From Nitrospirota bacterium (GTDB lineage Bacteria > Nitrospirota > Thermodesulfovibrionia > Thermodesulfovibrionales > SM23-35): 27,766 bases of DNA. Made by a program: the position numbers and the translations under genes. This document shows positions 2,954-27,766 of the stretch, piece by piece (position 1 is the first letter of the stretch; each line of letters starts with the position of its first letter). The DNA is taken from the NCBI GenBank assembly GCA_014859105.1, contig JACUUX010000038.1, forward strand, positions 1 to 27,766, read 5' to 3'. Below the pieces are notes generated by a model that ran no database searches, was not told the origin of the DNA, and saw nothing but the letters and a program-made list of their open reading frames with translations.

Positions 2954-4228
2954 ATGAATAGAAATGTTGTAATTACAGGTATTGGGATTCTCTCTTCCAT
3001 AGGAATCGGGAAAGAAAATTTCTGGGATGTACTATTCAAGGGTAAAACAGGTTTTAAAGAAATAACTCTGTTTGATACCTCTGCTTTGAATGTCCATATA
3101 GCAGGAGAAATTAGTGATTTTGACCCCGTTGCCTTTCTGGGCAAAAAAGGACTCCGTACACTTGACAGGAGCACAAGACTTATAAATTCTGCTGCTAAGC
3201 TTGCCATAGAAGATGCAAATCTGCAAATTACAGAAGAGAATGCTCATCTTACGGGTGTCTCTATCGGAACAACCTTTGGAAGTCTCCATAGTATCTCACA
3301 GTTCGACCGTGAAGGGCTCATCGAAGGCCCTAAATATGTAAACCCATCACATTTTCCGAATACAGTTATAAACTCTCCTGCAAGTCAGGTCTCAATACGT
3401 TTTACGATAAAGGGGTTCAATACGACTATATCTACAGGCTTCTGTGCAAGCCTTGATGCCGTTTCATATGCTGCTGATTTTATAAAATTAAACAGGGCGG
3501 ATGTTGTTCTTGCAGGCGGTGTTGAAGAATTATGCGAAGAGACTTTCCTCGGATTTCACAACCTCGGATGTTTATCGGGATTTGATGGTTCAGAACCTCT
3601 TTGCTGTCCATTTGATGCAAGAAGGAACGGTGTAATCCTTTCTGAAGGAGCGGCTGTCCTAATTCTTGAAGATGAAGAACATGCATTAAGAAGAGGTGCA
3701 AGTATTATGGCAAAGATATCAGGTTATGGTAATTCTTTTGATCCATCACCCCCCTTTAATTCCCCCCTTGGTAAGGGGGGATACAGAGGGGTTGAGGAAT
3801 TCATAGTTGATGGAAAAGGATTAAGAAATGCCATTACCCTCGCCTTACAGGATGCATCTCTCCATCCTGAAAATATAGATTATATTTCTGCATCTGCGAA
3901 CTCAACAAAAGTACTTGACAGAATGGAAACAAATGTTATCAAAGAGGTTTTCGGAAATCATGCTTATAATATTCCGGTGAGTTCGATTAAATCGATGGTT
4001 GGTGAGTCTTTTTCTGCTTCAGGAGCATTGGCAATTGTGGCTGCAATAGGTGCGATGCAAAGAGGAATAGTTTTACCTACAGTTAATTACACTGAAAAAG
4101 ACCCTGAATGCGACCTTGATTATGTTCCAAACACAGCAAGACAGAAACATATAAACAATGTGCTTATAATATCATCTGATCCATATGGCAATAATGCAGC
4201 TATAATATTAGGAAAGCACGATGCATGA
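2954..4228 (+). CDS. Beta-ketoacyl-ACP synthase-like protein lacking both catalytic histidines (CLF/KS-beta-like partner), with in-frame GC-rich element insertion
   Basis: 424 aa with a thiolase-fold KAS N-terminus (MNRNVVITGIGILSSIGIG) and KAS C-terminal signature (PTVNYTEKDPECDLDYVPN). The candidate nucleophile Cys is retained (TGFCAS). The HGTGT His position reads SASANST and the GHxxGAAG His position reads GESFSASG. The stop overlaps the start of the downstream fabZ-like gene (ATGCATGA). Confidence 0.8.
   Translation: MNRNVVITGIGILSSIGIGKENFWDVLFKGKTGFKEITLFDTSALNVHIAGEISDFDPVAFLGKKGLRTLDRSTRLINSAAKLAIEDANLQITEENAHLTGVSIGTTFGSLHSISQFDREGLIEGPKYVNPSHFPNTVINSPASQVSIRFTIKGFNTTISTGFCASLDAVSYAADFIKLNRADVVLAGGVEELCEETFLGFHNLGCLSGFDGSEPLCCPFDARRNGVILSEGAAVLILEDEEHALRRGASIMAKISGYGNSFDPSPPFNSPLGKGGYRGVEEFIVDGKGLRNAITLALQDASLHPENIDYISASANSTKVLDRMETNVIKEVFGNHAYNIPVSSIKSMVGESFSASGALAIVAAIGAMQRGIVLPTVNYTEKDPECDLDYVPNTARQKHINNVLIISSDPYGNNAAIILGKHDA
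3745..3798. repeat. Family-B GC-rich palindromic element inserted in-frame in KS-like gene
   Basis: cacccccctttaattccccccttggtaaggggggatacagaggggttgagg is a poly-C/poly-G hairpin (cccccctt-ggtaa-gggggga) embedded in otherwise AT-rich coding sequence. It encodes PSPPFNSPLGKGGYRGVEE, an insertion relative to the KAS fold. Confidence 0.7.
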
Positions 4229-4712
4229 TCCAGGATGCAAGCAACTTGATTTTGAACAAATAAAAAAACTCATCCCTCAACGTTTTCCCTTCATCATGAT
4301 TGATAAGGTTCTTGAAGTTGAACCGGGTAAACATGCAGTCTCAGTTAAAAATGTTTCAGGTAATGACATATTCTTTCTCGGTCATTTCCCTGATATCGCA
4401 ATCATGCCCGGGGTTGCAATTATAGAAGCCATGGCACAGACTGCAATAATTATGTTTGCTGTCGGGCAAAAAGAAAATAATCCTTCCTCACCCCCCTTTA
4501 GCAAACCAATCTATTTTCTCGGATCAGTTAAAGCAAGGTTCTACCATCCGGTAGTCCCTGGAGACCAGTTAAAAATAAACGCGGTGAACGTAAAATCACT
4601 GCCAACCGGTGCTTATGTATCAGCAGAAGCATTTGTTAATGATAAAAAAGTTTCAGAAGCAGAACTTGTTTTTAGTGTCAAGGAGAAAGGTCAATTATTC
4701 CCTCCCCCTTGA
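4221..4712 (+). CDS. fabZ: 3-hydroxyacyl-ACP dehydratase, FabZ-like hotdog-fold protein
   Basis: 163 aa with canonical FabZ motifs (IPQRFPFIMIDKV; LGHFPDIAIMPGVAIIEAMAQ with catalytic His and Glu). It is translationally coupled to the upstream KS-like gene. It contains an extra SSPPFSKP segment encoded by tcaccccccttt (4488-4499). Its last codons (FPPP-stop) lie inside a GC-rich repeat. Confidence 0.85.
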   Translation: MHDPGCKQLDFEQIKKLIPQRFPFIMIDKVLEVEPGKHAVSVKNVSGNDIFFLGHFPDIAIMPGVAIIEAMAQTAIIMFAVGQKENNPSSPPFSKPIYFLGSVKARFYHPVVPGDQLKINAVNVKSLPTGAYVSAEAFVNDKKVSEAELVFSVKEKGQLFPPP

Positions 4713-4768
4713 CGGAGAAGTACATATTAATCCCCTCCCCATTGACGGGGGAGGGTAAGGGTGGGGGT
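4700..4768. repeat. Family-B GC-rich palindromic element at fabZ-like 3' end and intergenic region
   Basis: ccctccccc ttgacgg ... cccctcccc-attgac-gggggagggtaagggtgggggtg. The hairpin cccctcccc/gggggaggg shares the gagggtaagggtg core with the 7096-7156 element. It overlaps the fabZ-like stop codon at 4710-4712. Confidence 0.7.
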
Positions 4769-4818
4769 GACTAATAATTGAACAGGCTGCAAAATATAGC
4801 TAAAAATCTAATGAAGTT

Positions 4819-4880: not shown

Positions 4881-6128
4881 ATGCTCAACAATCATCGTGT
4901 AGTTATAACCGGTCTCGGTGTTATCTCTTCCATCGGTATAGGCTGGGAGGAATTCTGGGACAATCTTCTCAAAGGGAAATCAGGAATAAGTCCTGTGACA
5001 TCTTTTGATACCACTAATCACATTACTCACAACGGCGGCGAAGTTAAAAACTTTAAGCCTGAAGAATTCATTCCAGAAGAAAAAATTAAATTACTTAACA
5101 GATCATCACAACTCGCCTTTGCAGCAGCAAAGCTTGCAATTGAGGATGCTTATTTGTCCCAAGAAAATTACCCCTCCCCCCTCCCCCTCCCTCAAGGGGA
5201 GGGGGCGAGGGGGAGGGTTGGCATCTGTATAGGAACAACTACAGGGTCGATACAGGCTATTGAGCATATTAATGATAGAATAATCAGTAATAAAGAAATA
5301 GGCAAAGAATTAATAAGTCAACTGCCACCTCATACTACTCCTTCAACGATAGCAAGAGAATTTGATTTAAATGGTCCTAATTTTATGTTTTCCACTGCCT
5401 GTGCAGCAGGCAATTATGCTATAGGTTATGGCTTTGATCTTATACGTTCTAAAAGGGCTGACGTTATTATTGCCGGAGGTTCAGACCCTTTCTCACGGAT
5501 ATCTTTCACAGGGTTCAATCAATTTTCTGTATCTGCTCCTGAAAAGTGTCAGCCTTTTGATAAAAACAGAAAAGGTATGATGGTAGCTGAAGGTGCTGGG
5601 ATTCTTGTTCTTGAATTACTGGAAATTGCTATAAGAAGAAATGCACCTATATATGCTGAGATATCAGGTTATGGTCTAAGCTGTGATGCAGAGCATATGA
5701 CGCAACCTTCTGTCGACGGTATTTCGGAATGTATGATAAAAGCAATGCGTGAAGCTAAAATCGAAACAGAAGATGTAGATTATATATGTGCGCATGGAAC
5801 TGGAACAACTTCTAATGATAAAACGGAATGTGCTGCAATTAAAGAGGTCTTTGGACCACTATATAAAAAAATGCCTGTAAGCTCTATAAAATCAATGCTC
5901 GGACATCCAATGGGTGCTGCATCAGCACTTGAGGCAATTGCATGTGCACTTGCAGTAAAAAATGACATTATTCCTCCAACTATAAATTATGAGACACCCG
6001 ACCCCGAATGTGATATAGATTGCGTTCCAAATAAATCAAGGCAACATCCTGTAAATATAGCTTTGAATAATTCTTATGCTTTTGGTGGGAATAATGCTTG
6101 TTTAGTGGTTAAAAAATTTATAGAATAA
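4881..6128 (+). CDS. Beta-ketoacyl-ACP synthase II-like (FabF-type) condensing enzyme with complete Cys-His-His triad, carrying in-frame GC-rich insertion
   Basis: 415 aa. Active-site Cys in FSTACAAGNYAIG, first His in ICAHGTGTTSNDKTE, Lys and second His in IKSMLGHPMGAASALE, and C-terminal NSYAFGGNNACLVV. Confidence 0.85.
   Translation: MLNNHRVVITGLGVISSIGIGWEEFWDNLLKGKSGISPVTSFDTTNHITHNGGEVKNFKPEEFIPEEKIKLLNRSSQLAFAAAKLAIEDAYLSQENYPSPLPLPQGEGARGRVGICIGTTTGSIQAIEHINDRIISNKEIGKELISQLPPHTTPSTIAREFDLNGPNFMFSTACAAGNYAIGYGFDLIRSKRADVIIAGGSDPFSRISFTGFNQFSVSAPEKCQPFDKNRKGMMVAEGAGILVLELLEIAIRRNAPIYAEISGYGLSCDAEHMTQPSVDGISECMIKAMREAKIETEDVDYICAHGTGTTSNDKTECAAIKEVFGPLYKKMPVSSIKSMLGHPMGAASALEAIACALAVKNDIIPPTINYETPDPECDIDCVPNKSRQHPVNIALNNSYAFGGNNACLVVKKFIE
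5170..5217. repeat. Family-B GC-rich palindromic element inserted in-frame in fabF-like gene
   Basis: cccctcccccctccccctccctcaaggggagggggcgagggggaggg is a near-perfect poly-C/poly-G palindrome. It encodes PSPLPLPQGEGARGRVG, which is not part of the conserved KAS fold. Confidence 0.7.
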
Positions 6129-6152
6129 ATTAACAAGGAGAATAACCTTGGA

Positions 6153-6632
6153 ATGGCTGGAAATATTGAAAAAGAAGCATGTAAGAATATAATTATGAAC
6201 AGCTTTAAGACATATAGCCTTACAACTGATGAAAAACAGGAAATAAAACATCTTATAAAGGCGGAATTAGAAAAACATAATGAAATTGCCTTTGCCTATA
6301 TTTATGGTTCATTTATTGAACCCGAGATGCCTTTTTTCAGAGATATAGATATAGGTATTTACCTCATAGATTATAAAGACGCCGATTGTTTGAAATATGA
6401 AATTGAGTTATCCATTGAATTGGAAAAATGTCTCCAGTACAAATATCCAGTTGATTTAAGAGTTATAAATAAATCAGATATTTTATTTGTGCATAATGTT
6501 ATTCAGGGTGAATTGCTTTTTATAAGAGATGAAGATTTATGGACTGATTTCGTAGTATATGTTTCTTTAAAATACAATGATATAGCCTCTGTATTTAATC
6601 ACTACTTCAAGGAGGCTTATATAGAAAGATGA
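6153..6632 (+). CDS. mntA: Nucleotidyltransferase-domain antitoxin (MntA/MNT family)
   Basis: 159 aa with the minimal nucleotidyltransferase motif (YIYGSF ... RDIDIGIY, i.e. GSx(n)DxD). Its stop overlaps the start of the downstream HEPN gene by 4 bp. Confidence 0.75.
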   Translation: MAGNIEKEACKNIIMNSFKTYSLTTDEKQEIKHLIKAELEKHNEIAFAYIYGSFIEPEMPFFRDIDIGIYLIDYKDADCLKYEIELSIELEKCLQYKYPVDLRVINKSDILFVHNVIQGELLFIRDEDLWTDFVVYVSLKYNDIASVFNHYFKEAYIER

Positions 6633-7048
6633 GTTTGGATAAGGTTAAGATAAAAGCAAGATTTGAGGATATACAAAAGGCTATTGATAGACTTTCTGAG
6701 TTTACAAAGATTGACAAAAATTCATTTCTTTCGAATGAGGATTTTATCCATATAGCCCGTTCCCATCTTCTTATTGCTTCGGAAGCATCTATTAACATCT
6801 GCTACCATATTGCAGCAAAAAGGCTAAAAAGGGCACCAGCCGAATACAGTTCGTGTTTTGAATTATTGCAAAGGCATAAGCTTATATCAGAGGAGTTAGC
6901 ACTCCATCTTATCAAACTAATCGGGCTCAGAAACAGAATGGTCCATCGCTATGAAGAGATAGACTACGGTTTCATATATGACAATTTTAAAGAGATTATA
7001 GAAAACTTTAGAAAACTTATTAATGAAGTCTCAAGTTTGATAATTTGA
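6629..7048 (+). CDS. hepT: HepT-like HEPN-domain toxin (DUF86)
   Basis: 139 aa with the Rx4-6HxY HEPN motif (RNRMVHRY) near the C-terminus. Paired with the upstream MNT-type gene. Confidence 0.75.
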   Translation: MSLDKVKIKARFEDIQKAIDRLSEFTKIDKNSFLSNEDFIHIARSHLLIASEASINICYHIAAKRLKRAPAEYSSCFELLQRHKLISEELALHLIKLIGLRNRMVHRYEEIDYGFIYDNFKEIIENFRKLINEVSSLII

Positions 7049-7095
7049 ATTTGAATATTTTGAACTTGTCCAAAAATGTCATTGACCCGAAAATA

Positions 7096-7205
7096 CCCCT
7101 CACCCTCACCCTTACCCTCTCCCACAAGGGGAGAGGGTAAGGGTGAGGGTGAGGGGTGCAGGGGTGTGTACCCATCCCTTGATGGGAGGGGATAAAGGGG
7201 AGGGT
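7096..7205. repeat. Family-B GC-rich palindromic elements (two hairpins), intergenic
   Basis: 7096-7123 (cccctcaccctcacccttaccctctccc) pairs perfectly with 7129-7156 (gggagagggtaagggtgagggtgagggg), giving a roughly 28 bp stem with a 5 nt loop. A second hairpin, cccatccc-ttgat-gggagggg, lies at 7171-7190. Confidence 0.85.
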
Positions 7206-7289
7206 GTTATATTTTCATGTTTCCTTGTGCCACTTGTGGCATGAGGGTTTGTTTAGGATTTAGATATTAGAATTCGGGATTTAAAAGAT

Positions 7290-7392
7290 ATGTATGATGC
7301 TGTAATCATAGGTACGGACATAAGCGGCCTTGTTTGTAGATGTTATCTGGCAAAGGCAGGAAAAATGGGACGTCATGAGCATTTAATACTTG
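7290..7392 (+). pseudogene. Degenerate duplicate of the 5' end of the downstream CrtI-like oxidoreductase gene (gene remnant)
   Basis: atgtatgatgctgtaatcataggtacggacataagcggccttgtttgtagatgttatctggcaaaggcagg is about 80% identical to 8076-8150 (atgtatgacgccataatcataggtgctggcataggaggccttgtatgcggatgttatctcgcaaaggctgg). The translation MYDAVIIGTDISGLVCRCYLAKAG has a ruined GxGxxG and terminates after 34 codons. Confidence 0.7.
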
Positions 7393-7452
7393 TTAATTAA
7401 CATCCAAAATGCTAAGTTATTTTTGAGGAAATCAAGAAGAAGGAGAAGAAAA

Positions 7453-7698
7453 ATGGTCAGCAAAAAAACCTATAAAGAGCGGATAGTAATTGATCCTGAA
7501 ATTCACTTTGGAAAGCCTTGTGTGGCTGGCACACGAATTCCAGTAGAAAATGTGCTTGAATTAGTTCAGGAAAACATTCCTTTTAGCGAAATTGTGGAAA
7601 AATATTATCCCGACCTTGAGATTGAAGATGTTAAAGCTTGTGTTAGATATGCAACAGATTTGGTTTGTTCGGAAGAAATTCATGTTGGAAAAACTTAA
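7453..7698 (+). CDS. DUF433-family small protein (putative antitoxin)
   Basis: Core HFGKPCVAGTRIPVENVLE is typical of DUF433. Likely start is MVSKKTYKE at 7453 after the purine-rich SD gaagaaggagaagaaaa. The six-frame ORF extends upstream to 7390 via TTG. Confidence 0.7.
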   Translation: MVSKKTYKERIVIDPEIHFGKPCVAGTRIPVENVLELVQENIPFSEIVEKYYPDLEIEDVKACVRYATDLVCSEEIHVGKT

Positions 7699-8054
7699 TG
7701 CGTCTACTTACAGATCAGGACGTGTATAAAATAACAGTAGAACAGCTTAAAAAATGGGGCCATGATGCAATAACCGCTAAAGAGCTTGGTATGCAACAAG
7801 CAGCAGATAGAGATTTACTAAAGAAAACTATTGAAACAAATCGGTTGCTTATTACAAGGGATAAGGATTTTGGGGCACTTGTTTTCTTAGAAGAATCATT
7901 AAATACTGGAGTCATTCTTCTAAGAGTTACTCCAATAACTGTTGAAGATGTACATCGGGAACTTTATCGTCTCTTTCAGGAACATACCGAAGAGGAATTA
8001 AAACATTTATTCTGTGTTGTTGAGCCTCATCGGCATCGAATTCGCCGTTTATAG
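7698..8054 (+). CDS. DUF5615-family PIN-like protein (putative toxin partner of DUF433)
   Basis: ATG at 7698 overlaps the upstream stop (TAATG). MRLLTDQDV ... ITRDKDFG matches the N-terminus and acidic core of DUF5615/Mut7-C-like PIN proteins that pair with DUF433. The six-frame ORF starts earlier at 7665. Confidence 0.65.
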   Translation: MRLLTDQDVYKITVEQLKKWGHDAITAKELGMQQAADRDLLKKTIETNRLLITRDKDFGALVFLEESLNTGVILLRVTPITVEDVHRELYRLFQEHTEEELKHLFCVVEPHRHRIRRL

Positions 8055-8075
8055 TATGGTAAAGCGTAATAAAAT

Positions 8076-9497
8076 ATGTATGACGCCATAATCATAGGTG
8101 CTGGCATAGGAGGCCTTGTATGCGGATGTTATCTCGCAAAGGCTGGCATGAAGGTGCTTATCTGCGAGCAGCATTATAAACCGGGAGGTTATTGCACATC
8201 CTTTACAAGACAGGGTTTTACTTTTGATGCTGCTCCTCACTGTTTTGGATCTTACAGAAAAGATGGAATGATGAGAAAAATCCTTCAAGACTTAGAAGTA
8301 GATAAAAAATTAAATATAATAAGACCCGACCCTTCAGATATTATAATGACACCTGATTATGAAGTCATCTTCTGGAATGATTTCGAAAGGACCACAGAGG
8401 GATTTCAAAGAATGTTTCCTGAAGATCGCACTAATATCAGGAATTTCTTCACCCTGTTAATGGATACCGATCCTAACTCCTTCTCTAGAATGAAGAACCG
8501 TACCTTCAAAGAATTATTAGATCAATATTTAACTAATGTAAAGTTGAAGTCGATCCTATCCTTTCCATTTCTGGGAATCGGAGGTTTGCCTTCGTCCATG
8601 ATATCTGCCTTCATAGGAGCAAAACTCTTCTCCGAATTTTTATTTGACGGTGGGTATTATCCCGAAGGTGGCATGCAGGCGCTGCCTGATGCTTTAGCAG
8701 AGAGATTAAAAGAGTTCGGCGGTGAGTTGAGACTCTCCTGTCCTATCAAAAAAATACGAGTAAGAGAGAATAGAGTTACGGGCGTAATCTCAGAAAAAGA
8801 CGGCTTCATGCCTTCAAGATATGTGATTTCGAACTGTGATGCCAGACAGACTTTTTTCAAACTCATAGGCGGGAGAAAGGTTGAGAGAGAGTTCTCTCAG
8901 AGATTAAAGAAGATGGTGCCCTCTATATCGAATTTCATTGTCTATATGGGCATAGACGGTCATTTTGAAACCCTGCCGAGACCAGGAACCACCCTTTCCT
9001 TTTTTAGATACTATGACATAGAGAAGGCATACCGGTCAGTACTAAAAGGCGACTTCGAAGGCTACGGCGGATATATGCTGCGAGCCTCCCGGGATACCCC
9101 GGTTATCATAGCAATCATTCCTGTACCATTTAAAAACAAAACCTATTGGAAGGATCACAAGCAAAGATTATCGGAATATCTAATAGAGAGAATAGAGAGA
9201 GATTTGATTCCGAATCTCACAGCCCATATCGTATATAAAGACGCATCCACTCCATCTACCTTAAACAGATATACTTTAAACTATAAAGGTGCCTCCTTTG
9301 GCTGGGCTGGTATACCTTCGCAATTAGCAGTCCCGGGCCTGAGAAAGTGCTCGTATACAGAGGGGCTCTATTTGACAGGACATTGGACTACACTTGGAGT
9401 AGGAATCTCTGGAGTGGCGTATGTTGGGTATGACACCGCGAAGATTCTTATAAGGAGAGAGGTAAATAGGCAAAACATCTCATTTTTGATAAAATAA
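8076..9497 (+). CDS. NAD(P)/FAD-dependent oxidoreductase, phytoene desaturase (CrtI)/amine-oxidase family
   Basis: 473 aa. N-terminal dinucleotide-binding motif YDAIIIGAGIGGLVCGCYLAKAGMKVLICEQ ... PGG, and a C-terminal FGWAG ... LYLTGHWT motif characteristic of the CrtI-like family. Confidence 0.75.
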   Translation: MYDAIIIGAGIGGLVCGCYLAKAGMKVLICEQHYKPGGYCTSFTRQGFTFDAAPHCFGSYRKDGMMRKILQDLEVDKKLNIIRPDPSDIIMTPDYEVIFWNDFERTTEGFQRMFPEDRTNIRNFFTLLMDTDPNSFSRMKNRTFKELLDQYLTNVKLKSILSFPFLGIGGLPSSMISAFIGAKLFSEFLFDGGYYPEGGMQALPDALAERLKEFGGELRLSCPIKKIRVRENRVTGVISEKDGFMPSRYVISNCDARQTFFKLIGGRKVEREFSQRLKKMVPSISNFIVYMGIDGHFETLPRPGTTLSFFRYYDIEKAYRSVLKGDFEGYGGYMLRASRDTPVIIAIIPVPFKNKTYWKDHKQRLSEYLIERIERDLIPNLTAHIVYKDASTPSTLNRYTLNYKGASFGWAGIPSQLAVPGLRKCSYTEGLYLTGHWTTLGVGISGVAYVGYDTAKILIRREVNRQNISFLIK

Positions 9498-9503
9498 AAA
9501 CTA

Positions 9504-11645
9504 GTGGACAAAGATAAATATATACAGCAGGAGCTATTGGAAACAATCCGGTCGTTCACCGGTTTACTCTTTCTCATCGGTGCCCCAGCAATATTGTTGT
9601 TGAGTCTGCTCGATTATTTTGTGACACCCGAGAATTTTAGAACCTTCCTTGTTTATCGGTTGGTCGCTACCTTACTCTACGTGACATTATATTTCATATT
9701 CAAAAGAGTAAAAAAATATCCCCTCTTCTTCCTCATAATGGGCACCGTCATAGTTTCGTCTATGGTCGAGTTGATGATACTTTCTTTTGGGGGTCATCAG
9801 TCGACCTATTACGCGGGCATGATCATCGTGTTTATCTTCCTCTTCGGATTGCTCCCCTTCTCTCTCAGAATATCCTTACTTCTCGCTTCAATCATCTATG
9901 CTATTTATCTGATTCCTATCTTAGTCTTGGACCAGATCACGAACATGCGCGTCTTTATGAACAATAACATCTTTCTCTTTGCTACCCTCATGAGTGTACT
10001 TATCTGGAGACATATCAATTACAAGATTCACCTCAAAAAGCTTTCCCTCGAATATGACCTTTCCCAAGAACAGAAACAACTTAAAACTTACTCCACCCAG
10101 CTTGAAGAACTTGTCCAACAAAGAACAAAGGAGCTTGCCATCTCAGAAAAATGGCACAGGTCAATTTTTGACAATGCTACCGAAGGAATTATGGTGCTTG
10201 ATAACAACGGTGCGATTGTTAACGTTAATAAAATGGCATGCGACCTACATGGCTTTACCGGAAATGCTTTAGCAGGTGTAAATATCGGGCTTCTTGAAGT
10301 AAAAGCAGACAAGGAAAAAATTAATGAGAGGTTATCGAGAATTTTAAATGGTGAAACGCTTACTTATGAAACAGAACATTATAGAAAAGACGGTGAGAAG
10401 GTTCTTTTAGAAATCAGCTCAAACCGTATAGATAGCGAAGGCCAGACATATATCCAATGCTTCTGCAGGGATATAACTGAAAAGAAGAAGATTCAGGAGC
10501 AGTTGATACATTCACAGAAAATGGAATCAGTCGGCGCACTCGCCGGAGGCATCGCTCATAACTTCAATAATATTTTGACCACGATTCTCGGATATTCAGA
10601 ATTGTTGATTGAATACAGCAATCTTGATGACTCATCAAAACAGAAGGTAGAAAATATTGAGAGTTCTGCAAGAAAGGCAGGAGTAATGGTCTCGAAACTC
10701 CTGGGTTTTGCAAGGAGAGAAAAACATGAAATCCTTCCTTTAAACCTGCATCATGTAATCAATGATTCAGTTAAACTCTTTGAGGGTGTGCTTGACAAGA
10801 AGATAGGATTGAAGATAAATCTGTGCAGTAATAATCCAATTATCGAAGGAGATCCGAATCAGGTCGAGCAGGTTATTATGAACCTCATAGTTAATGCAAA
10901 GGATGCAATGCCTGACGGAGGCCTTATAACAATAAAAACTGACATAATCGAGATTGGAAAGGATAAAACCGATACGCCGGCTTACATAGAACAAGGAAAA
11001 TATGTCGTATTAACCGTGTCTGACACAGGCTGTGGCATACCTAAAAATATAATCAATAAAGTATTTGATCCTTTCTTCACAACTAAAGAGAAAGGGAAAG
11101 GAACAGGCCTTGGACTTGCTATGGTTTACGGGATTGTCAAAGATCACAGAGGCTATATTTCTGTTCAAAGTGAGATAGACAAGGGCACAATTTTTGACAT
11201 ATACCTCCCTGTTTCAGAAAGAGTTGTTCACAGGGTTACAAAACCACAAATCTTTTCGATAGAAGGACATGAAAATATACTTGTAGTCGATGATGATAAA
11301 GACGTATTAAACTTTATTAAGGATATCCTTGAAACGCATGGATATACTGTTACGTCTGCAAATAACTCCCTGACAGCAATTGACATATTCAGGAATCTTT
11401 CCGGAAAAATTTCGCTTGTAATAACAGACGTACTTATGCCACTGATGGAAGGAGGAGAACTAATAAAACAATTGAAAGAAATAAAACCGGATATCAAGAT
11501 AATCATCATTTCCGGCTACAGCGATGAAAAAATTACAAAAGACATGGTCGATGTGTTTATCAGGAAACCTTTTGAAAGTATTGAACTCCTGTCAGCGGTC
11601 AGACGGCTCCTCGATGCACAGGGCAGGAGATCACCACTTTATTAA
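9504..11645 (+). CDS. Hybrid sensor histidine kinase / response regulator with multi-TM N-terminal sensor and PAS domain
   Basis: 713 aa with a GTG start 7 nt after the oxidoreductase stop. About 6 hydrophobic helices in the first 170 aa, then a coiled-coil and PAS (ATEGIMVLDNNGAIVNVN). HisKA H-box (GGIAHNFNNILTTILGYSELL). HATPase_c (IVNAKDAMPDGG, GTGLGLAMVYGIV). C-terminal receiver (ILVVDDDKD ... ITDVLMP ... IIISGY). Confidence 0.85.
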   Translation: MDKDKYIQQELLETIRSFTGLLFLIGAPAILLLSLLDYFVTPENFRTFLVYRLVATLLYVTLYFIFKRVKKYPLFFLIMGTVIVSSMVELMILSFGGHQSTYYAGMIIVFIFLFGLLPFSLRISLLLASIIYAIYLIPILVLDQITNMRVFMNNNIFLFATLMSVLIWRHINYKIHLKKLSLEYDLSQEQKQLKTYSTQLEELVQQRTKELAISEKWHRSIFDNATEGIMVLDNNGAIVNVNKMACDLHGFTGNALAGVNIGLLEVKADKEKINERLSRILNGETLTYETEHYRKDGEKVLLEISSNRIDSEGQTYIQCFCRDITEKKKIQEQLIHSQKMESVGALAGGIAHNFNNILTTILGYSELLIEYSNLDDSSKQKVENIESSARKAGVMVSKLLGFARREKHEILPLNLHHVINDSVKLFEGVLDKKIGLKINLCSNNPIIEGDPNQVEQVIMNLIVNAKDAMPDGGLITIKTDIIEIGKDKTDTPAYIEQGKYVVLTVSDTGCGIPKNIINKVFDPFFTTKEKGKGTGLGLAMVYGIVKDHRGYISVQSEIDKGTIFDIYLPVSERVVHRVTKPQIFSIEGHENILVVDDDKDVLNFIKDILETHGYTVTSANNSLTAIDIFRNLSGKISLVITDVLMPLMEGGELIKQLKEIKPDIKIIIISGYSDEKITKDMVDVFIRKPFESIELLSAVRRLLDAQGRRSPLY

Positions 11646-12626
11646 TACAGAAGACCATGTAAGACCGCCGCCGAATGCCTCAAAAAGAATATAATCTCCA
11701 TTTTTTATCCTTCCGGATATTAAAGCTTCATCCAGGGCAATAGGAATGGAAGCAGCTGAAGTATTCCCATATTTATATAAGTTTACAATAAATTTTGACA
11801 TGGGCAAACCCAACCTTTCGGCAGTTGCCTGTATTATTCTCAGATTCGCCTGATGCAGAACAAGAAGTGAAAGCTGTGAAGGCTTCAACCCCTGTTCCTC
11901 AAGTGTTCGTAATACAAGGTCTTCCAGTGTTCTTACCGCAACTTTAAAAGTTTCATTGCCTTTCATCTTAATGTAATGAAGTCTTTTTTCGACAGTTTCT
12001 GCGGCAGTGGGATTCCTGGAACCACCTCCCGGAATGTGTAAGAGATCCCACATCCTTCCATCAGAATTTATATGCACTGAGAGAATACCTCTGTCTTCGT
12101 CCGTCGGTTCAAGAATTGCAGCACCGGCCCCGTCACCAAAAAGAACACATGTTGTTCTGTCATGCCAGTCCGTAATCTTTGAAAGCACTTCTGTTCCGAC
12201 AACCAGGATTCTTTTATACATTTCTGATTTAATAAAACTGTCTGCAATGCAGAAGCCGTATAGGAATCCTGAACATGCTGCATTTATATCGAACCCAACA
12301 GCATTTGAAGCGCCCAGTTTAGCCTGAAGAAAACATGCTGTTGAAGGGAAAGGCATGTCGCCGGACACCGTTGCAACAATAATCATGTCTATATCTTCCG
12401 GCCTTAATCCAGCTCTATCAAGAGCTACCTTTGATGCTTCATACGCAAGGTCTGATGCAGCCTGACTCTCATCAGCTATTCTTCTTTCCTTAATTCCCGT
12501 CCTTTCTGTAATCCATTCATCAGAGGTATCAAGCATCTTTTCAAGGTCTCGATTCGTAAGAATCTTATCGGGGAGATATGATCCGGTCGCGATTATTCTA
12601 CTTCTTGGCAACTTTAATCCTTTCAT
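11631..12626 (-). CDS. fabH: 3-oxoacyl-ACP synthase III
   Basis: 331 aa. ATGSYLPDKILTNRDLEKMLDTSDEWITERTGI N-terminus, active-site Cys in NAACSGF, and HQAN / GNTSAAS motifs. Confidence 0.9.
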   Translation of the reverse strand: MKGLKLPRSRIIATGSYLPDKILTNRDLEKMLDTSDEWITERTGIKERRIADESQAASDLAYEASKVALDRAGLRPEDIDMIIVATVSGDMPFPSTACFLQAKLGASNAVGFDINAACSGFLYGFCIADSFIKSEMYKRILVVGTEVLSKITDWHDRTTCVLFGDGAGAAILEPTDEDRGILSVHINSDGRMWDLLHIPGGGSRNPTAAETVEKRLHYIKMKGNETFKVAVRTLEDLVLRTLEEQGLKPSQLSLLVLHQANLRIIQATAERLGLPMSKFIVNLYKYGNTSAASIPIALDEALISGRIKNGDYILFEAFGGGLTWSSVLIKW

Positions 12627-21535: not shown

Positions 21536-21818
21536 TTTAATTCATAGCGAACTCTGTTCCAATAGTTGATTCATTAGGTTGTCATTCCCGCTTGTCGGGA
21601 ATCCTTCTGTTAACAAAGAAAGATTCTGGACAAGCCAGAATGACAGAATTAAAAATCTTAAACAACTTTTAAGATCTTTGATGATTAATAGCATAGCGAA
21701 AGGTTGCGGCTATCTATAAACCTTACATAATTTGCTCCGAAAATGTCATTCCGAGCGAAGCGAGGAATCTTGTCTTTGAGATTGCTTCAGGCTAAAGCCC
21801 TCGCAATGACATTTTTAT
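21536..21818. repeat. Family-A mosaic repeat, copy 2 (reverse orientation)
   Basis: 21538-21580 is the reverse complement of module M3 (aattcatagcgaactctgttccaat). 21581-21610 is M2rc (gtcattcccgcttgtcgggaatcc). 21612-21650 is M1rc (agattctggacaagccagaatgacagaatt). 21651-21695 is M5rc (cttaaacaacttttaagatctttgatgattaatagc). 21738-21815 is M4 (tgtcattccgagcgaagcgaggaatctt ... ccctcgcaatgaca). Confidence 0.8.
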
Positions 21819-23921: not shown

Positions 23922-25259
23922 TCACATGAGGAGTTTCTCTACTTCTTTGATCGATTCCCGAAGTGTAAAGATTATTAATTTATCACCTTCTATAACCCTG
24001 TCGGAACCCGAGGGGATTATTACTTCTTCTCCTCTGATAATAGCTCCTATTATTGATGCTTTTAAATGTGCCTGATCCAGTGTCTTTCCTATGAGTGGTG
24101 AAGTCTTGCCAATTCTCCCCTCGATAATCTCAGCTTTTGCTTCAGCTATAGCCGTTAAGGAAAGTATATCACCCCTCCTGACATATCTCAGGATTGTACT
24201 TGCAGTAATAAGCCTTGGACTGAGAACTGCCTGAAGGCCAAGGCTATGCGCTAGCATCATATAGTCAGTTTTATTTACTACAGCTATATTTTTCTTTGCA
24301 CCCAATTTTTTTGCAAGCAGGGATACCATGATATTTAATTCATCACTGTTTGAAACAGCTATAAAAGCATCCATGTCTCCTATGTTTTCTTCCATGAGCA
24401 TTTTTTGTTCCGTTCCGTCTGCATGAAGTACAAGAGAATTTTTCAGATTTTTGCTGAGGTACTTACACCTGTCGGCATCTTTCTCTATGATTTTCACATC
24501 CGCTCTCTGCTCTATTGAAGAAGCAACATAGTAACCGGTACGGCCTCCACCGAGCAGCATCACCTTCTTTGCGGGTTTTGTAGTCACCCCGATGAGGGCT
24601 AAAATATCCTGAACTTCCTTCTTCCTGACCGGTATATAGATGATATCCCCTGCTTTCAGGGAATCGGTTCCTGAAGGAATGATTGTTTTGTCATCTCTCA
24701 ATATTAAAGCGATAAGTATCTTTCTATGGAGTGTCACACTGAGTTTTTGTAATGTCTTGCCTGATAACAGAGAGCCCTCGATTATCTTTAAACCTATTAC
24801 TTTTACAAGTCCTCCTTCAAACTCTTCAATATCTGTTGCCAGAGGTACCTCTAACAACCTTATAACTGCTTTTGCAAGCTCAAGTTCTGGGTTAATGGCA
24901 GGGTCGATATCAAGATTCTCCCTGCTCAGGAGTTTTTCGTTATTAAAGTATTCAGGATTTCTTATGCGGGCAATCTTCCTGGGTATCCCAAACATTGCCT
25001 TTGCGAGCAGACAGGCTATCATATTGATTTCATCTTTATCGGTAACAGCCAGAAGGATATCTGCCCTGTCAGCTTCTGCTTCCCTGAGTGTGGATGGATC
25101 ACCCCCCTCCCCTTCAACTACGGCTACGTCTATCTCTTCAACAATCCGCTTCAGTTTACTCCGATCCTTGTCTATCACTACTACGTCTATGGACTCGAGT
25201 GAAAGAAATTTTGCTATCTGGTATCCAACCTCACCAGCTCCTACTATTATTATACGCAT
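23922..25259 (-). CDS. trkA: Trk system potassium uptake protein TrkA (tandem RCK/NAD-binding domains)
   Basis: 445 aa. MRIIIVGAGEVG at the N-terminus and a second Rossmann motif VMLLGGGRTGYYVA. The EGEGGDP segment is encoded by a short GC-rich run (25095-25112). Confidence 0.9.
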   Translation of the reverse strand: MRIIIVGAGEVGYQIAKFLSLESIDVVVIDKDRSKLKRIVEEIDVAVVEGEGGDPSTLREAEADRADILLAVTDKDEINMIACLLAKAMFGIPRKIARIRNPEYFNNEKLLSRENLDIDPAINPELELAKAVIRLLEVPLATDIEEFEGGLVKVIGLKIIEGSLLSGKTLQKLSVTLHRKILIALILRDDKTIIPSGTDSLKAGDIIYIPVRKKEVQDILALIGVTTKPAKKVMLLGGGRTGYYVASSIEQRADVKIIEKDADRCKYLSKNLKNSLVLHADGTEQKMLMEENIGDMDAFIAVSNSDELNIMVSLLAKKLGAKKNIAVVNKTDYMMLAHSLGLQAVLSPRLITASTILRYVRRGDILSLTAIAEAKAEIIEGRIGKTSPLIGKTLDQAHLKASIIGAIIRGEEVIIPSGSDRVIEGDKLIIFTLRESIKEVEKLLM

Positions 25260-25284: not shown

Positions 25285-25686
25285 AACATCAGCAATTCTT
25301 TGCGAAGAAGAGACAAGATTCCTCAGTCGTCCCGACAGTTGCCGGAACTCCTTCGGAATGACAAAATGAGCCTTCTTCATTGTCATTCCGAGCGAAGCGA
25401 GGAATCTTAAAGCTTTACAAATTAACCGAGAATTGCTGATTAATCATTTGATATCTTGTGAATTATGCAAGACAATAGTTAAAATTTTAAATATGCTATT
25501 AATCTTTAAATATCTTAAGGGTCGTTCAATATCTTCAATTCTGTCATTCTGGCTTGTCCAGAATCTTTCTTCGAACAACCCCCTAACCCCCTTTACTAAG
25601 GGGGATTCAGAAGGATTCCCGATCCGCCTTAGGCGGAGGAATGACGGCTTAACTTATCAAGCATTGGAACGGAGTTCGCTATGAAT
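25285..25686. repeat. Family-A mosaic repeat, copy 3 (M4-M5-M1-M2-M3)
   Basis: 25288-25440 is M4 (atcagcaattc ... tgtcattccgagcgaagcgaggaatctt ... gagaattgctgat). 25495-25537 is M5. 25538-25570 is M1 (aattctgtcattctggcttgtccagaatc). 25578-25645 is M2. 25646-25686 is M3, ending cattggaacggagttcgctATGAAT, and that ATG is the midA-like start. Confidence 0.8.
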
Positions 25687-26799
25687 TCCCTCGAGCAAAA
25701 GATTATTGAAAAAATAAAAAAACAAGGCCCTATTACTTTTAAAACCTTTATGGAAATGGCACTTTATGAGCCGGAGCTTGGTTACTATGCATCAGAGAAG
25801 ACAGGGATTGGTAAGACAGGAGATTTCTATACAAGCCAGCATGTCCATCCTGTGTTCGGTACAATGCTTGGAAAACAGCTTGAAGAGATGTGGAAAATTA
25901 TGAAGAAACCCTCTGATTTCCTTATTATTGAACCCGGGGCAGGTGAAGGGTATATGTGCAAGGATATACTGGACTATCTGAAAAAGTGCGAACTGTCAAA
26001 TTCTTTCATATATATCATAATAGAAAAGAATCCTTTTATGAAGGTCAAGCAAAAGTCATTGCTAAATGACTATGAAGACAAAGTGAGGTGGATATACTCA
26101 TTGGAAGAACTCAGCGATATCACTGGATGTATCCTCTCAAATGAATTGCTTGATTCATTTCCTGTACACATGATAGAAATGGAGGATGAATTGAAGGAGA
26201 TTTACGTAGGTTTAAATAATGGAAGCCTGACAGAAATAAAAGGAAATCCAAGCTCAGATGATTTGAAATATTACCTAAAAGAATTTTCCATAAGTCTATC
26301 CGGTGGATACAGGACAGAAATAAACCTGAGGATAAAAGAATGGCTTAAAACTGTCAGCAAAGTAATTTCAGAGGGATTTATTTTCACGATCGATTATGGC
26401 TATCCCGTCTGGGACTACTACAGCGAGGACAGAAACAGGGGAACACTTCTCTGCTATTATAAGCATCAGGTGAATGAGAATCCTTATAAAAATATAGGAG
26501 GGCAGGACATTACAGCCCATATCAATTTCACTTCTGTAAAAAAATGGGGCGAAGAATATGACTTTAAGACAATTGGTTTCTGTCAGCAGGGAATTTTTTT
26601 TGTTTCCCTCGGTATTGATGAAGTAATACAGGAAATATATGAAAATCACAGTGAGTATTTATTTGAGATCGCAAAGATAAAGAAATTAATTCTCCCGGGC
26701 ACTATTGGAGAAACGCATAAGGTAATGATCCAGTATAAAGGCAGAAAAAATTTCGAACTGAGAGGATTTTCGATAAAAAATCAAAAAGATAAATTATAA
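25681..26799 (+). CDS. Class I SAM-dependent methyltransferase, MidA/NDUFAF7 (DUF185) family
   Basis: 372 aa. N-terminal ITFKTFMEMALYEPELGYYAS ... GDFYTS ... FG pattern typical of MidA. GxG in IIEPGAGEGYM. The SD (ggag) and ATG are contributed by repeat module M3. Confidence 0.75.
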   Translation: MNSLEQKIIEKIKKQGPITFKTFMEMALYEPELGYYASEKTGIGKTGDFYTSQHVHPVFGTMLGKQLEEMWKIMKKPSDFLIIEPGAGEGYMCKDILDYLKKCELSNSFIYIIIEKNPFMKVKQKSLLNDYEDKVRWIYSLEELSDITGCILSNELLDSFPVHMIEMEDELKEIYVGLNNGSLTEIKGNPSSDDLKYYLKEFSISLSGGYRTEINLRIKEWLKTVSKVISEGFIFTIDYGYPVWDYYSEDRNRGTLLCYYKHQVNENPYKNIGGQDITAHINFTSVKKWGEEYDFKTIGFCQQGIFFVSLGIDEVIQEIYENHSEYLFEIAKIKKLILPGTIGETHKVMIQYKGRKNFELRGFSIKNQKDKL

Positions 26800-27557: not shown

Positions 27558-27715
27558 TGTGTCCTTATATCCTAAAAGCACATCCGTAAGATATCTCTTT
27601 CTTCATAAGTATAGCCAATAATATTCAAAAAAGGCATGAAAAATATAAAATATTTTTAACAATTAAGAAAAAATACCTAACCCGGATTATTCATAAAATT
27701 ATTGGCAAAACTTAT

Positions 27716-27766
27716 GCTATTAATCATCAAAGATCTTAAAAGTTGTTTAAGTTTTTCAATTCTGTC
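27716..27766. repeat. Family-A repeat, copy 5 (truncated by window end)
   Basis: gctattaatcatcaaagatcttaaaagttgtttaagtttttcaattctgtc is module M5 followed by the first bases of M1. It is the reverse complement of 21640-21693. Confidence 0.7.

Follow-up and report, generated by a model that had tools for sequence, protein, structure and literature searches.

A decayed copy of an oxidoreductase gene start marks a joint of toxin-antitoxin cassette arrays in Nitrospirota

How does a toxin-antitoxin (TA) cassette come to lie exactly between two copies of the start of one gene? The question is raised by a contig of a Nitrospirota bacterium (assembly GCA_014859105.1, JACUUX010000038.1), which was analysed over its whole length of 27,766 nt and is called the window here. 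It carries an intact CrtI-like NAD(P)/FAD-dependent oxidoreductase gene (Crt, 8076-9497) and, on the far side of a DUF433/DUF5615 gene pair, a decayed copy of the first codons of that gene. We show that in this remnant a joint of a cassette array is visible, of a kind that recurs at a conserved gene start with no recombinase nearby, and that the remnant is very probably the dead scar of a mobile module composed of a repeat and a cassette. The first-pass annotation of the locus had offered two explanations, insertion of the cassette into the 5′ end of the gene with a long target duplication or replacement of an older paralogue; both are weighed below. Throughout, F denotes the recurring copy of the first 75-110 nt of the Crt gene, a remnant is a decayed F, and L numbers designate the related loci.

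Two copies of one gene start around a TA cassette

The features that make up the duplicated region are as follows.

7250-7284, + strand: sequence resembling the native upstream region of a Crt gene, here that of a former working start
7285-7360, + strand: left repeat copy, the decayed first 24-25 codons of Crt
7361-7452, + strand: left end of the DUF433/DUF5615 cassette, with a promoter-like motif and a ribosome-binding site
7453-7698, + strand: DUF433 (COG2442), predicted antitoxin (Pfam PF04255, 9e-22)
7698-8054, + strand: DUF5615 PIN-like protein, predicted toxin (Pfam PF18480, 2.1e-21, residues 1-110 of 118 aa)
8071-8146, + strand: right repeat copy, the working Crt start
8076-9497, + strand: intact CrtI-like NAD(P)/FAD-dependent oxidoreductase of a KAS-FabA-KAS-(ACP) lipid cluster (Pfam Amino_oxidase, NAD_binding_8)

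Pairwise comparison of 7290-7365 with 8076-8151 gave 60 identical positions of 76, in agreement with the identity of about 80% claimed at first; in the best ungapped register (7285-7360 vs. 8071-8146), which begins 5 nt ahead of both ATGs, 62 of 76 positions (82%) are identical. This is the longest direct repeat that a search of the 27.8-kb contig returned, with E = 1.7e-14 in a self-BLAST of the window. When the remnant was used as the BLAST query, the match scored 75.2 bits (E = 4e-17) and the runner-up in the window 22.9 bits. A nucleotide profile built from 48 orthologous Crt 5′ ends matched the window only at 7293-7364 and 8079-8188, with 50.9 bits for the left copy (nhmmer), while the other Rossmann genes of the contig (Lpd, 15000-16391; TrkA, 23922-25259) gave no match to the remnant. 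The similarity is therefore specific to the family and extends, as the first-pass annotation had argued, beyond a generic GxGxxG; the family profile and the remnant BLAST rule out a chance or generic Rossmann likeness. An assembly artefact was ruled out as well, since an independent assembly of a near-identical strain from another sample (L007, JGI 3300076001) has the same island and the same remnant, and the structure is thus older than the split between the window and L007.

The remnant still forms an open reading frame (ORF) of 36 aa (7290-7400, MYDAVIIGTDISGLVCRCYLAKAGKMGRHEHLILVN). In it GTDISG stands in place of GAGIGG and R in place of G17, and 11 codons beyond the end of similarity there is a stop codon, so that the broken motif and early stop described previously were both found. 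The remnant itself is an ordinary, non-functional pseudogene fragment. Between the two copies lie the two Pfam-supported genes of the cassette, bracketed by the repeat as had been claimed. The antitoxin gene comes first, and its stop overlaps the start of the toxin gene (TAATG, 7696-7700). DUF433 (COG2442) and a PIN-family toxin have been predicted to form a TA pair (PMC2701414), and the DUF433 and DUF5615 pairing recurred in every locus that we examined; DUF5615 homologues number 415 at E ≤ 1e-10, and Crt homologues 1579 at E ≤ 1e-30. Ahead of the cassette genes, TTGTTA (7390-7395) and TAAGTT (7413-7418) are separated by a 17-nt spacer, and AAAATGCTAAGTTA is shared with L011 and L175. This motif, which a consensus scan did not flag, may act as the promoter of the cassette.

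To describe the divergence of the two copies we compared 69 nt from the conserved Tyr codon of Crt with the 48 orthologous starts. The remnant is 80% identical to its own resident gene, which ranks only fifth among the 48, and starts taken from different genomes are on average 77% identical to each other (5th-95th percentile, 71-84%). Of the 14 differences between remnant and resident gene, nine fall at third codon positions (p = 0.017), and the differences pooled over nine remnants from five lineages are distributed 22/12/72 over the three codon positions (p = 4e-13). We therefore concluded that the two sequences diverged for the most part when both were still coding and that they are different alleles. 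The 35 nt directly 5′ of the remnant (7250-7284) are identical at about 30 of 34 positions to the sequence directly 5′ of the functional Crt gene of L026, indicating that the remnant was once a working start in its native context. At the same time, the present working start (8074-8176) is 86-91% identical to the remnant-type copies of L008, L070, and L010, yet only 77-78% identical to the working starts of the same three loci, and by these comparisons it looks imported.

These results bear directly on the first of the two proposed explanations. If a staggered break or similar lesion in the lineage's own gene had led to the insertion in situ, positions -5 to +71 would have been copied to both sides of the cassette and the left copy would then have decayed. 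Both repeats would come from the recipient's own target and be near-identical; what we found are copies 18-20% apart, of which the left one is not closest to its own gene. For neutral decay of one copy about 45% of the differences would be expected at third positions (a rough estimate, not a computed value), against the 72 of 106 pooled over the nine remnants. The imported appearance of the working start speaks against this explanation, too, and so does a repeat-cassette junction held in common with L008, a genome with a Crt protein of only 59% identity (see below).

The empty site and the cassettes of other genomes

The locus has counterparts without the cassettes. In L001, which lies on a syntenic 338-kb contig with about 71% nt identity to the window, the gene order is KAS-FabA-KAS-ACP-Crt-histidine kinase, with one gene start and no TA genes. 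The same KAS-FabA-KAS-ACP-Crt arrangement with a single start and no TA genes was seen in about 45 Nitrospirota genomes, where ACP ends 14-40 nt ahead of the conserved Crt Tyr codon. The plain ACP-Crt junction is the empty site for which the first-pass annotation had proposed to look in related strains. The window and L007 are about 100% identical save in two blocks, 5031-5630 and 8330-10200 (57-72%), both of which border the TA island. In these blocks the distance between the two strains equals the distance of either to L001, a genus-level relative; very divergent DNA has therefore recombined in at the locus of the TA island.

The closest parallel to the window was found in L008 (Nitrospirota MAG221). 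Window positions 7290-8176 are colinear with L008 7600-8506 (82.6% over 918 nt), and the common stretch includes the left repeat, the same junction of repeat and cassette, the promoter-like motif, DUF433, DUF5615, and the right repeat. In L008, the counterpart of the window's right repeat is no more than the next remnant of an array, 6.5 kb long, that lies between ACP and Crt and in which six partial gene-start copies and the real start separate the units. At least six units bounded by F are present there, while the window has two cassettes. The units of L008 include a PBECR2-like/DUF2283 pair, DUF433/DUF5615, DUF5678 with an aspartyl-protease-like gene, small membrane ORFs, and a radical SAM gene. 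The last is a B12-binding radical SAM gene (10777-12132), which stands like a cassette between the last remnant and the real Crt start and overlaps that start. Five further loci have the following order.

L070: remnant, MntA/HepT, remnant, small ORF, Crt
L010: Asp-protease gene, remnant, DUF433/DUF5615, Crt
L090 (Omnitrophota): remnant, BrnT/BrnA, remnant, Crt
L026: ACP, degenerate remnant, MntA/HepT, IS110 transposase (7671-8729), Crt
L031: DUF5678-like ORF and HicB-like (UPF0150) pair between ACP and Crt (8213-8996)

The profile detected no remnant beside the occupants of L026 and L031, and the sole trace of F in L026, seen by eye, lies 5′ of its MntA gene. The order of the cassettes varies between genomes. 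L008 and L010 share the Asp-protease cassette and the next repeat up to codon ~36, after which different cassettes follow, which indicates that F marks a joint for cassette exchange. The remnants end in a few classes: after GIGGL(V) (codon ~14-15), at ~21, after LAKAG (~24-25), and after EQH (~33-36). In L010, small GC-rich palindromes are inserted in the Crt remnant and in the DUF5615 gene (405-430, ~500-535, and ~950-1060), and the toxin ORF is interrupted.

The same loci decide whether the 36-codon ORF of the window might instead have a function in the TA operon, as a leader peptide or as an element of its regulation. The ATG and the open frame ahead of the cassette's promoter region would suit such a role, but the equivalent copy before the same cassette in L008 has ATA instead of ATG, that of L010 is interrupted by repeat insertions, and L172 and L174 have no such ORF; the conserved glycines are replaced as well. 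A leader peptide is in our view scarcely credible, and as the ORF is not conserved we rejected it.

The cassettes are far younger than the host genes in the comparisons made with the window. In the comparison of the window with L008, nucleotide identity of the TA genes is 90.5% and their identity at four-fold sites 71-77%. The host genes gave these values.

Crt: 67% nt identity, 33% four-fold-site identity
KAS: 74% nt identity, 44% four-fold-site identity
Histidine kinase: 65% nt identity

Four-fold-site identities of 0.52-0.72 for the TA genes vs. 0.31-0.50 for Crt were obtained with L172, L174, L175, and L010, and of 0.78 for MntA vs. 0.32 for Crt with L026. Taken over five pairs, the TA genes span 0.52-0.74 at these sites and the adjacent Crt 0.31-0.50. 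The nearest relatives of the window's DUF5615 all lie directly 5′ of a Crt gene. The cassette has thus repeatedly moved among deeply diverged genomes into this one junction, an outcome expected of recombination through conserved flanks. Carriage by a phage or plasmid was not indicated, as no relative of the cassette was found in IMG/VR and no match in plasmid DNA. The earlier view of the cassette as recently mobile holds in the sense that it is horizontally mobile and recent relative to host divergence; in absolute terms it goes too far, since divergence from the nearest foreign copy has reached about 26% at the neutral sites of the cassette.

DUF433/DUF5615 cassettes are also found at genes other than Crt. 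In L011/L092 the cassette (81% aa identity) lies between wzm and wzt and is preceded by a duplicate of the first ~25 wzt codons (MNNPIIEISGLSKQYRIGTKTPYKTL vs. MNPIISVENLSKQYRIGTKTPYKTL), the last 41 nt of which are 100% identical to wzt. In an empty-site comparison for this recent-looking insertion the best homologue was only 79% identical. In L106 a 155-nt copy (81%) of the start of a dehydrogenase-like gene precedes the cassette, and the gene itself begins 3 nt past the toxin stop. We then surveyed 63 DUF5615 loci with both flanks available, which represent 37 independent contexts, and took as threshold the 99th percentile of cross-context controls (28.3 bits). Results showed flanking direct repeats above this threshold in 17 of the 37 contexts, ten of them reaching at least 60 bits; the repeats vary in length (26-188 bp) and their sequence is specific to the locus. 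That the repeat changes with the target gene argues against a single att specificity.

Insertion with long target duplication gains from these observations. Variable, locus-specific repeats at 17 of the 37 contexts and the perfect 41-nt duplicate of L011 are in its favor, and the architecture fits the class known for restriction-modification units, in which repeats of 30-420 bp flank an insert free of mobility genes and only one copy is present at the empty site (PMC2853133). It may well be the first origin of each F. As an account of the window itself we regard it as unlikely: the precedent cited for it stands, but the insertion was not made recently in this genome, as the 18-20% divergence, the rank of five among 48, the third-position excess, and the junction shared with L008 all testify. 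The replacement of an old tandem oxidoreductase paralogue, most of which the cassette would have displaced, is in turn very improbable. Full-length tandem paralogues do exist 1.4-2 kb upstream in L056, L065, L073, L078, and L088, and divergence biased to third positions would suit two genes that had once been functional. These paralogues, however, occur in other clades only, in about 45 Nitrospirota relatives a single copy follows directly on ACP, and the six remnants of a single array would require six paralogues. Moreover, the sequence upstream of the remnant matches that of the single functional gene of L026, and the same pattern is seen at wzt and at a dehydrogenase gene.

Upstream of the remnant the window carries a second cassette and the remaining genes of the lipid cluster.

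2954-4228: KAS (Pfam)
4221-4712: FabA-like (Pfam)
4881-6128: KAS (Pfam)
6153-6179, + strand: ACP gene stub, the first ~9 codons (MAGNIEKE) with the ribosome-binding region, matching the ACP of L001 (MSQNIEKE) and its spacing after KAS
6195-6632, + strand: MntA-type nucleotidyltransferase, antitoxin of MntA/HepT (Pfam Polbeta PF18765, 3e-16); ORF callable from 6153
6629-7048, + strand: HepT-like RNase toxin (Pfam PF01934, 2.8e-26), with a 4-nt overlap with MntA
7095-7207: GC-rich palindromic repeats at the end of the first cassette, with perfect 29-bp arms (7095-7123 and 7129-7157) and a second copy at 7170-7207
7222-7247, + strand: hairpin followed by a T-run, a putative terminator by consensus scan, between the MntA/HepT cassette and the remnant

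The overlapping genes with nucleotidyltransferase and HEPN-type RNase profiles form an MntA/HepT pair next to the DUF433/DUF5615 cassette, and the description of the locus as a small island of predicted TA pairs was correct. The annotated MntA ORF (6153-6632) is in frame with the ACP stub. Homology of MntA to other cassettes begins at the ATG at 6195, with 87% nt identity to L026 from there on, and this ATG is probably the true start. A search of the whole contig found no remainder of ACP in the window, although about 45 relatives have ACP directly before Crt.

The copies of the GC-rich palindrome family (4733-4770, 5183-5220, 7095-7157, and 7170-7207) include one, at 5183-5220, that lies in frame within the second KAS gene and adds about 10 residues (PLPQGEGARG) which the orthologues in L007 and L001 do not have. 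An Rfam search over 6000-8400 gave no family, only sub-threshold hairpin noise at the 29-bp palindrome. A second intergenic repeat family occurs in both orientations at 2506-2660, 21540-21700, 25380-25690, and 27713-27766; it has the core GTCATTCC-N-GCTTGTC-N-GGAATC and units of up to ~150-200 nt, is found also beside a cassette in L026, and looks like a miniature mobile element. An exact-protein look-up of the window's oxidoreductase returned no record.

Possible routes of insertion

Homology-driven insertion-duplication into the conserved gene start is the reading that we favor, with a probability of roughly 0.45-0.55. According to it, the remnant would be the former working start of Crt, still joined to its old upstream sequence and severed at codon ~25 by the incoming module. 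The module would have consisted of the DUF433/DUF5615 cassette and an F of its own, the initial 75-110 nt of a Crt gene, and recombination, presumably dependent on RecA, would have taken place inside the highly conserved Rossmann-coding start. The route may have been a single crossover of the Campbell type, by a circularised fragment on which the cassette was joined to the beginning of the gene downstream of it. The same product would result from a double crossover if the donor already had the arrangement F-cassette-F. In either case F would be duplicated, the gene would remain intact with a donor-derived start, and the old start would be left stranded upstream. A donor such as L174, in which ACP is followed after 12 bp by DUF433 and DUF5615 and the Crt start overlaps the toxin stop, could supply such fragments. 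Since the cassette of an L174-like donor abuts the gene, the right copy would start at the junction of cassette and gene just before the ATG, while the left copy would end at variable points because each of these corresponds to the end of a fragment. The MntA/HepT cassette would have arrived earlier and in the same way, a later deletion having taken ACP and the copy of F before MntA. Repetition of the process would lead to arrays of small, mostly TA-type cassettes bounded by F, and recombination within F would shuffle the cassettes between genomes.

Several observations weigh against this reading. With 75-110 nt and only ~80-90% identity between copies, F is a poor substrate for RecA, and we found no evidence of circular intermediates or of excision. 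Duplication is not obligatory, as several relatives (L172 and L174) have the cassette between ACP and Crt without a remnant. In L090 a partial start (8892-8945) stands directly against the real start (8984 onward) with no cassette between the two, an F-F pair that insertion-duplication does not predict. The insertion event itself cannot be reconstructed, because the nearest genome with an empty site has a nucleotide identity of about 71%. Furthermore, the founding step, by which a cassette was first joined to the start of Crt, wzt, or the dehydrogenase gene, may have been of another kind, with a true long target duplication where the DNA had broken. The remnants end in discrete classes, as a site-specific system would also yield, and, all genomes being contigs of metagenome-assembled genomes, a recombinase may act in trans.

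The last two points belong to a further explanation, in which F would be the attachment site of a recombinase encoded elsewhere and the locus an array of the integron-like or accretion type, built at a gene's 5′ end. Arrays bounded throughout by the same repeat, repeat ends in discrete classes, a cassette order that differs between genomes, and the single empty F-F pair of L090 agree with such a system. However, neither an integrase nor a transposase was found by Pfam among the 20 large ORFs of the window, and there is no tyrosine or serine recombinase within ~8 kb of the arrays at four loci, the remaining parts of these genomes lying outside our view. Folding ruled out an attC-like structure in F: four copies, folded as DNA on both strands, gave z-scores of -0.5 to -1.5 and no long stem. 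Inspection by eye for a XerCD/dif-like site showed only a 12-bp palindrome, CTATAATTATAG, which is present in some copies of F, represents AT-rich Ile codons, and is absent from the copies in the window. A single att specificity also cannot explain why the same cassette is flanked by duplicated starts of wzt and of a dehydrogenase gene. We therefore consider a site-specific cassette system distinctly unlikely, and prefer insertion-duplication by homology.

Known systems and what the locus implies

Insertion with long target duplication has been described for restriction-modification units and "other DNAs" with flanking repeats of 30-420 bp (Nobusato et al. 2000, Gene 259:99; Furuta, Abe & Kobayashi 2010, PMC2853133). 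It is known mostly from naturally competent species and its mechanism is unknown (PMC2853133; review PMC3874152), tandem duplication followed by recombination having been discussed as an alternative route (PMC3457768). Like these units, the locus studied here has a selfish two-gene unit without transposase or integrase, direct repeats of variable length that exceed 30 bp (76 nt, 82%, in the window), and a single copy in genomes free of the insert. In contrast to them, its repeats are old alleles instead of near-identical copies, it is the beginning of a coding gene that was duplicated, and the repeated use of this one piece has given rise to a cassette array. Neither long target duplication around type II TA cassettes nor an array at a gene's 5′ end came up in full-text searches of the literature. 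As an array, the locus seems to represent a form, not described before, of the insertion mode known from restriction-modification units.

In integrons, the tyrosine recombinase IntI acts on attC sites, imperfect palindromes that fold as hairpins. Integron arrays, and clusters of attC sites without an integrase, resemble the arrays at Crt in their small, often TA-type, promoter-poor cassettes in one orientation, in a recurring element of 60-120 nt, in an order that differs between genomes, and in that each cassette travels with the adjoining repeat. They differ in that the arrays at Crt have no IntI nearby (the window and the flanks of L008, L010, and L070), and that the repeat is the start of a coding gene without an attC fold, the identity of which changes with the target. 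Integrative elements such as SXT, which enters prfC, and the dusA-specific islands likewise insert at a gene's 5′ end and bring along a new start for it; they are tens of kb long and have an integrase and a fixed att core. As in these elements, the gene is kept intact by a substitute 5′ end, a displaced partial copy lies at the far border, and tandem arrays are possible, but the units described here measure only 0.4-1.4 kb, have no recombinase, and in place of a fixed core show a repeat that differs from one target gene to another.

Orphan toxin/immunity modules of rhs and cdiA form arrays at the 3′ end of the gene, where parts of the protein itself are exchanged. There, as we propose for Crt, successive recombination in a conserved stretch displaces older modules, each of which keeps a conserved fragment; the arrays at Crt, by contrast, lie at the 5′ end and their cassettes are unrelated genes. 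Campbell-type insertion-duplication, finally, is a laboratory genetic tool in which a circle carries a 5′ fragment of a gene. It predicts exactly the product seen in the window, that is, native upstream sequence with a truncated start, the insert, and a start followed by the rest of the gene. By this analogy, Campbell-type integration would be spreading TA cassettes in nature.

A more far-reaching proposal, which we hold to be rather doubtful, is that Nitrospirota and Omnitrophota possess an integrase-free site of cassette capture. The conserved first 25-37 codons of a housekeeping gene, one of the lipid cluster, would serve as a portable recombination arm that collects, stacks, and exchanges TA and other small cassettes among very divergent genomes, a functional analogue of the integron that would work by homology or by an undiscovered trans-acting recombinase, and long gene-start duplication would be a general route for the entry of TA cassettes into tightly packed operons.

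The movement of chromosomal TA modules that lack mobility genes is an old puzzle. In one TA cassette family, long duplications of the target flank the cassette in about half of the independent contexts, and in at least five lineages from two phyla unrelated cassettes have been stacked at a single conserved gene start. In annotation, remnants of gene starts are readily mistaken for small ORFs or N-terminal extensions, as in the window, where the annotated start of MntA is the ACP stub. The model of excision and integration through the repeated gene start is testable. The locus extends to TA systems a mode of mobility documented for restriction-modification units, and indicates that this mode can yield integron-like arrays.

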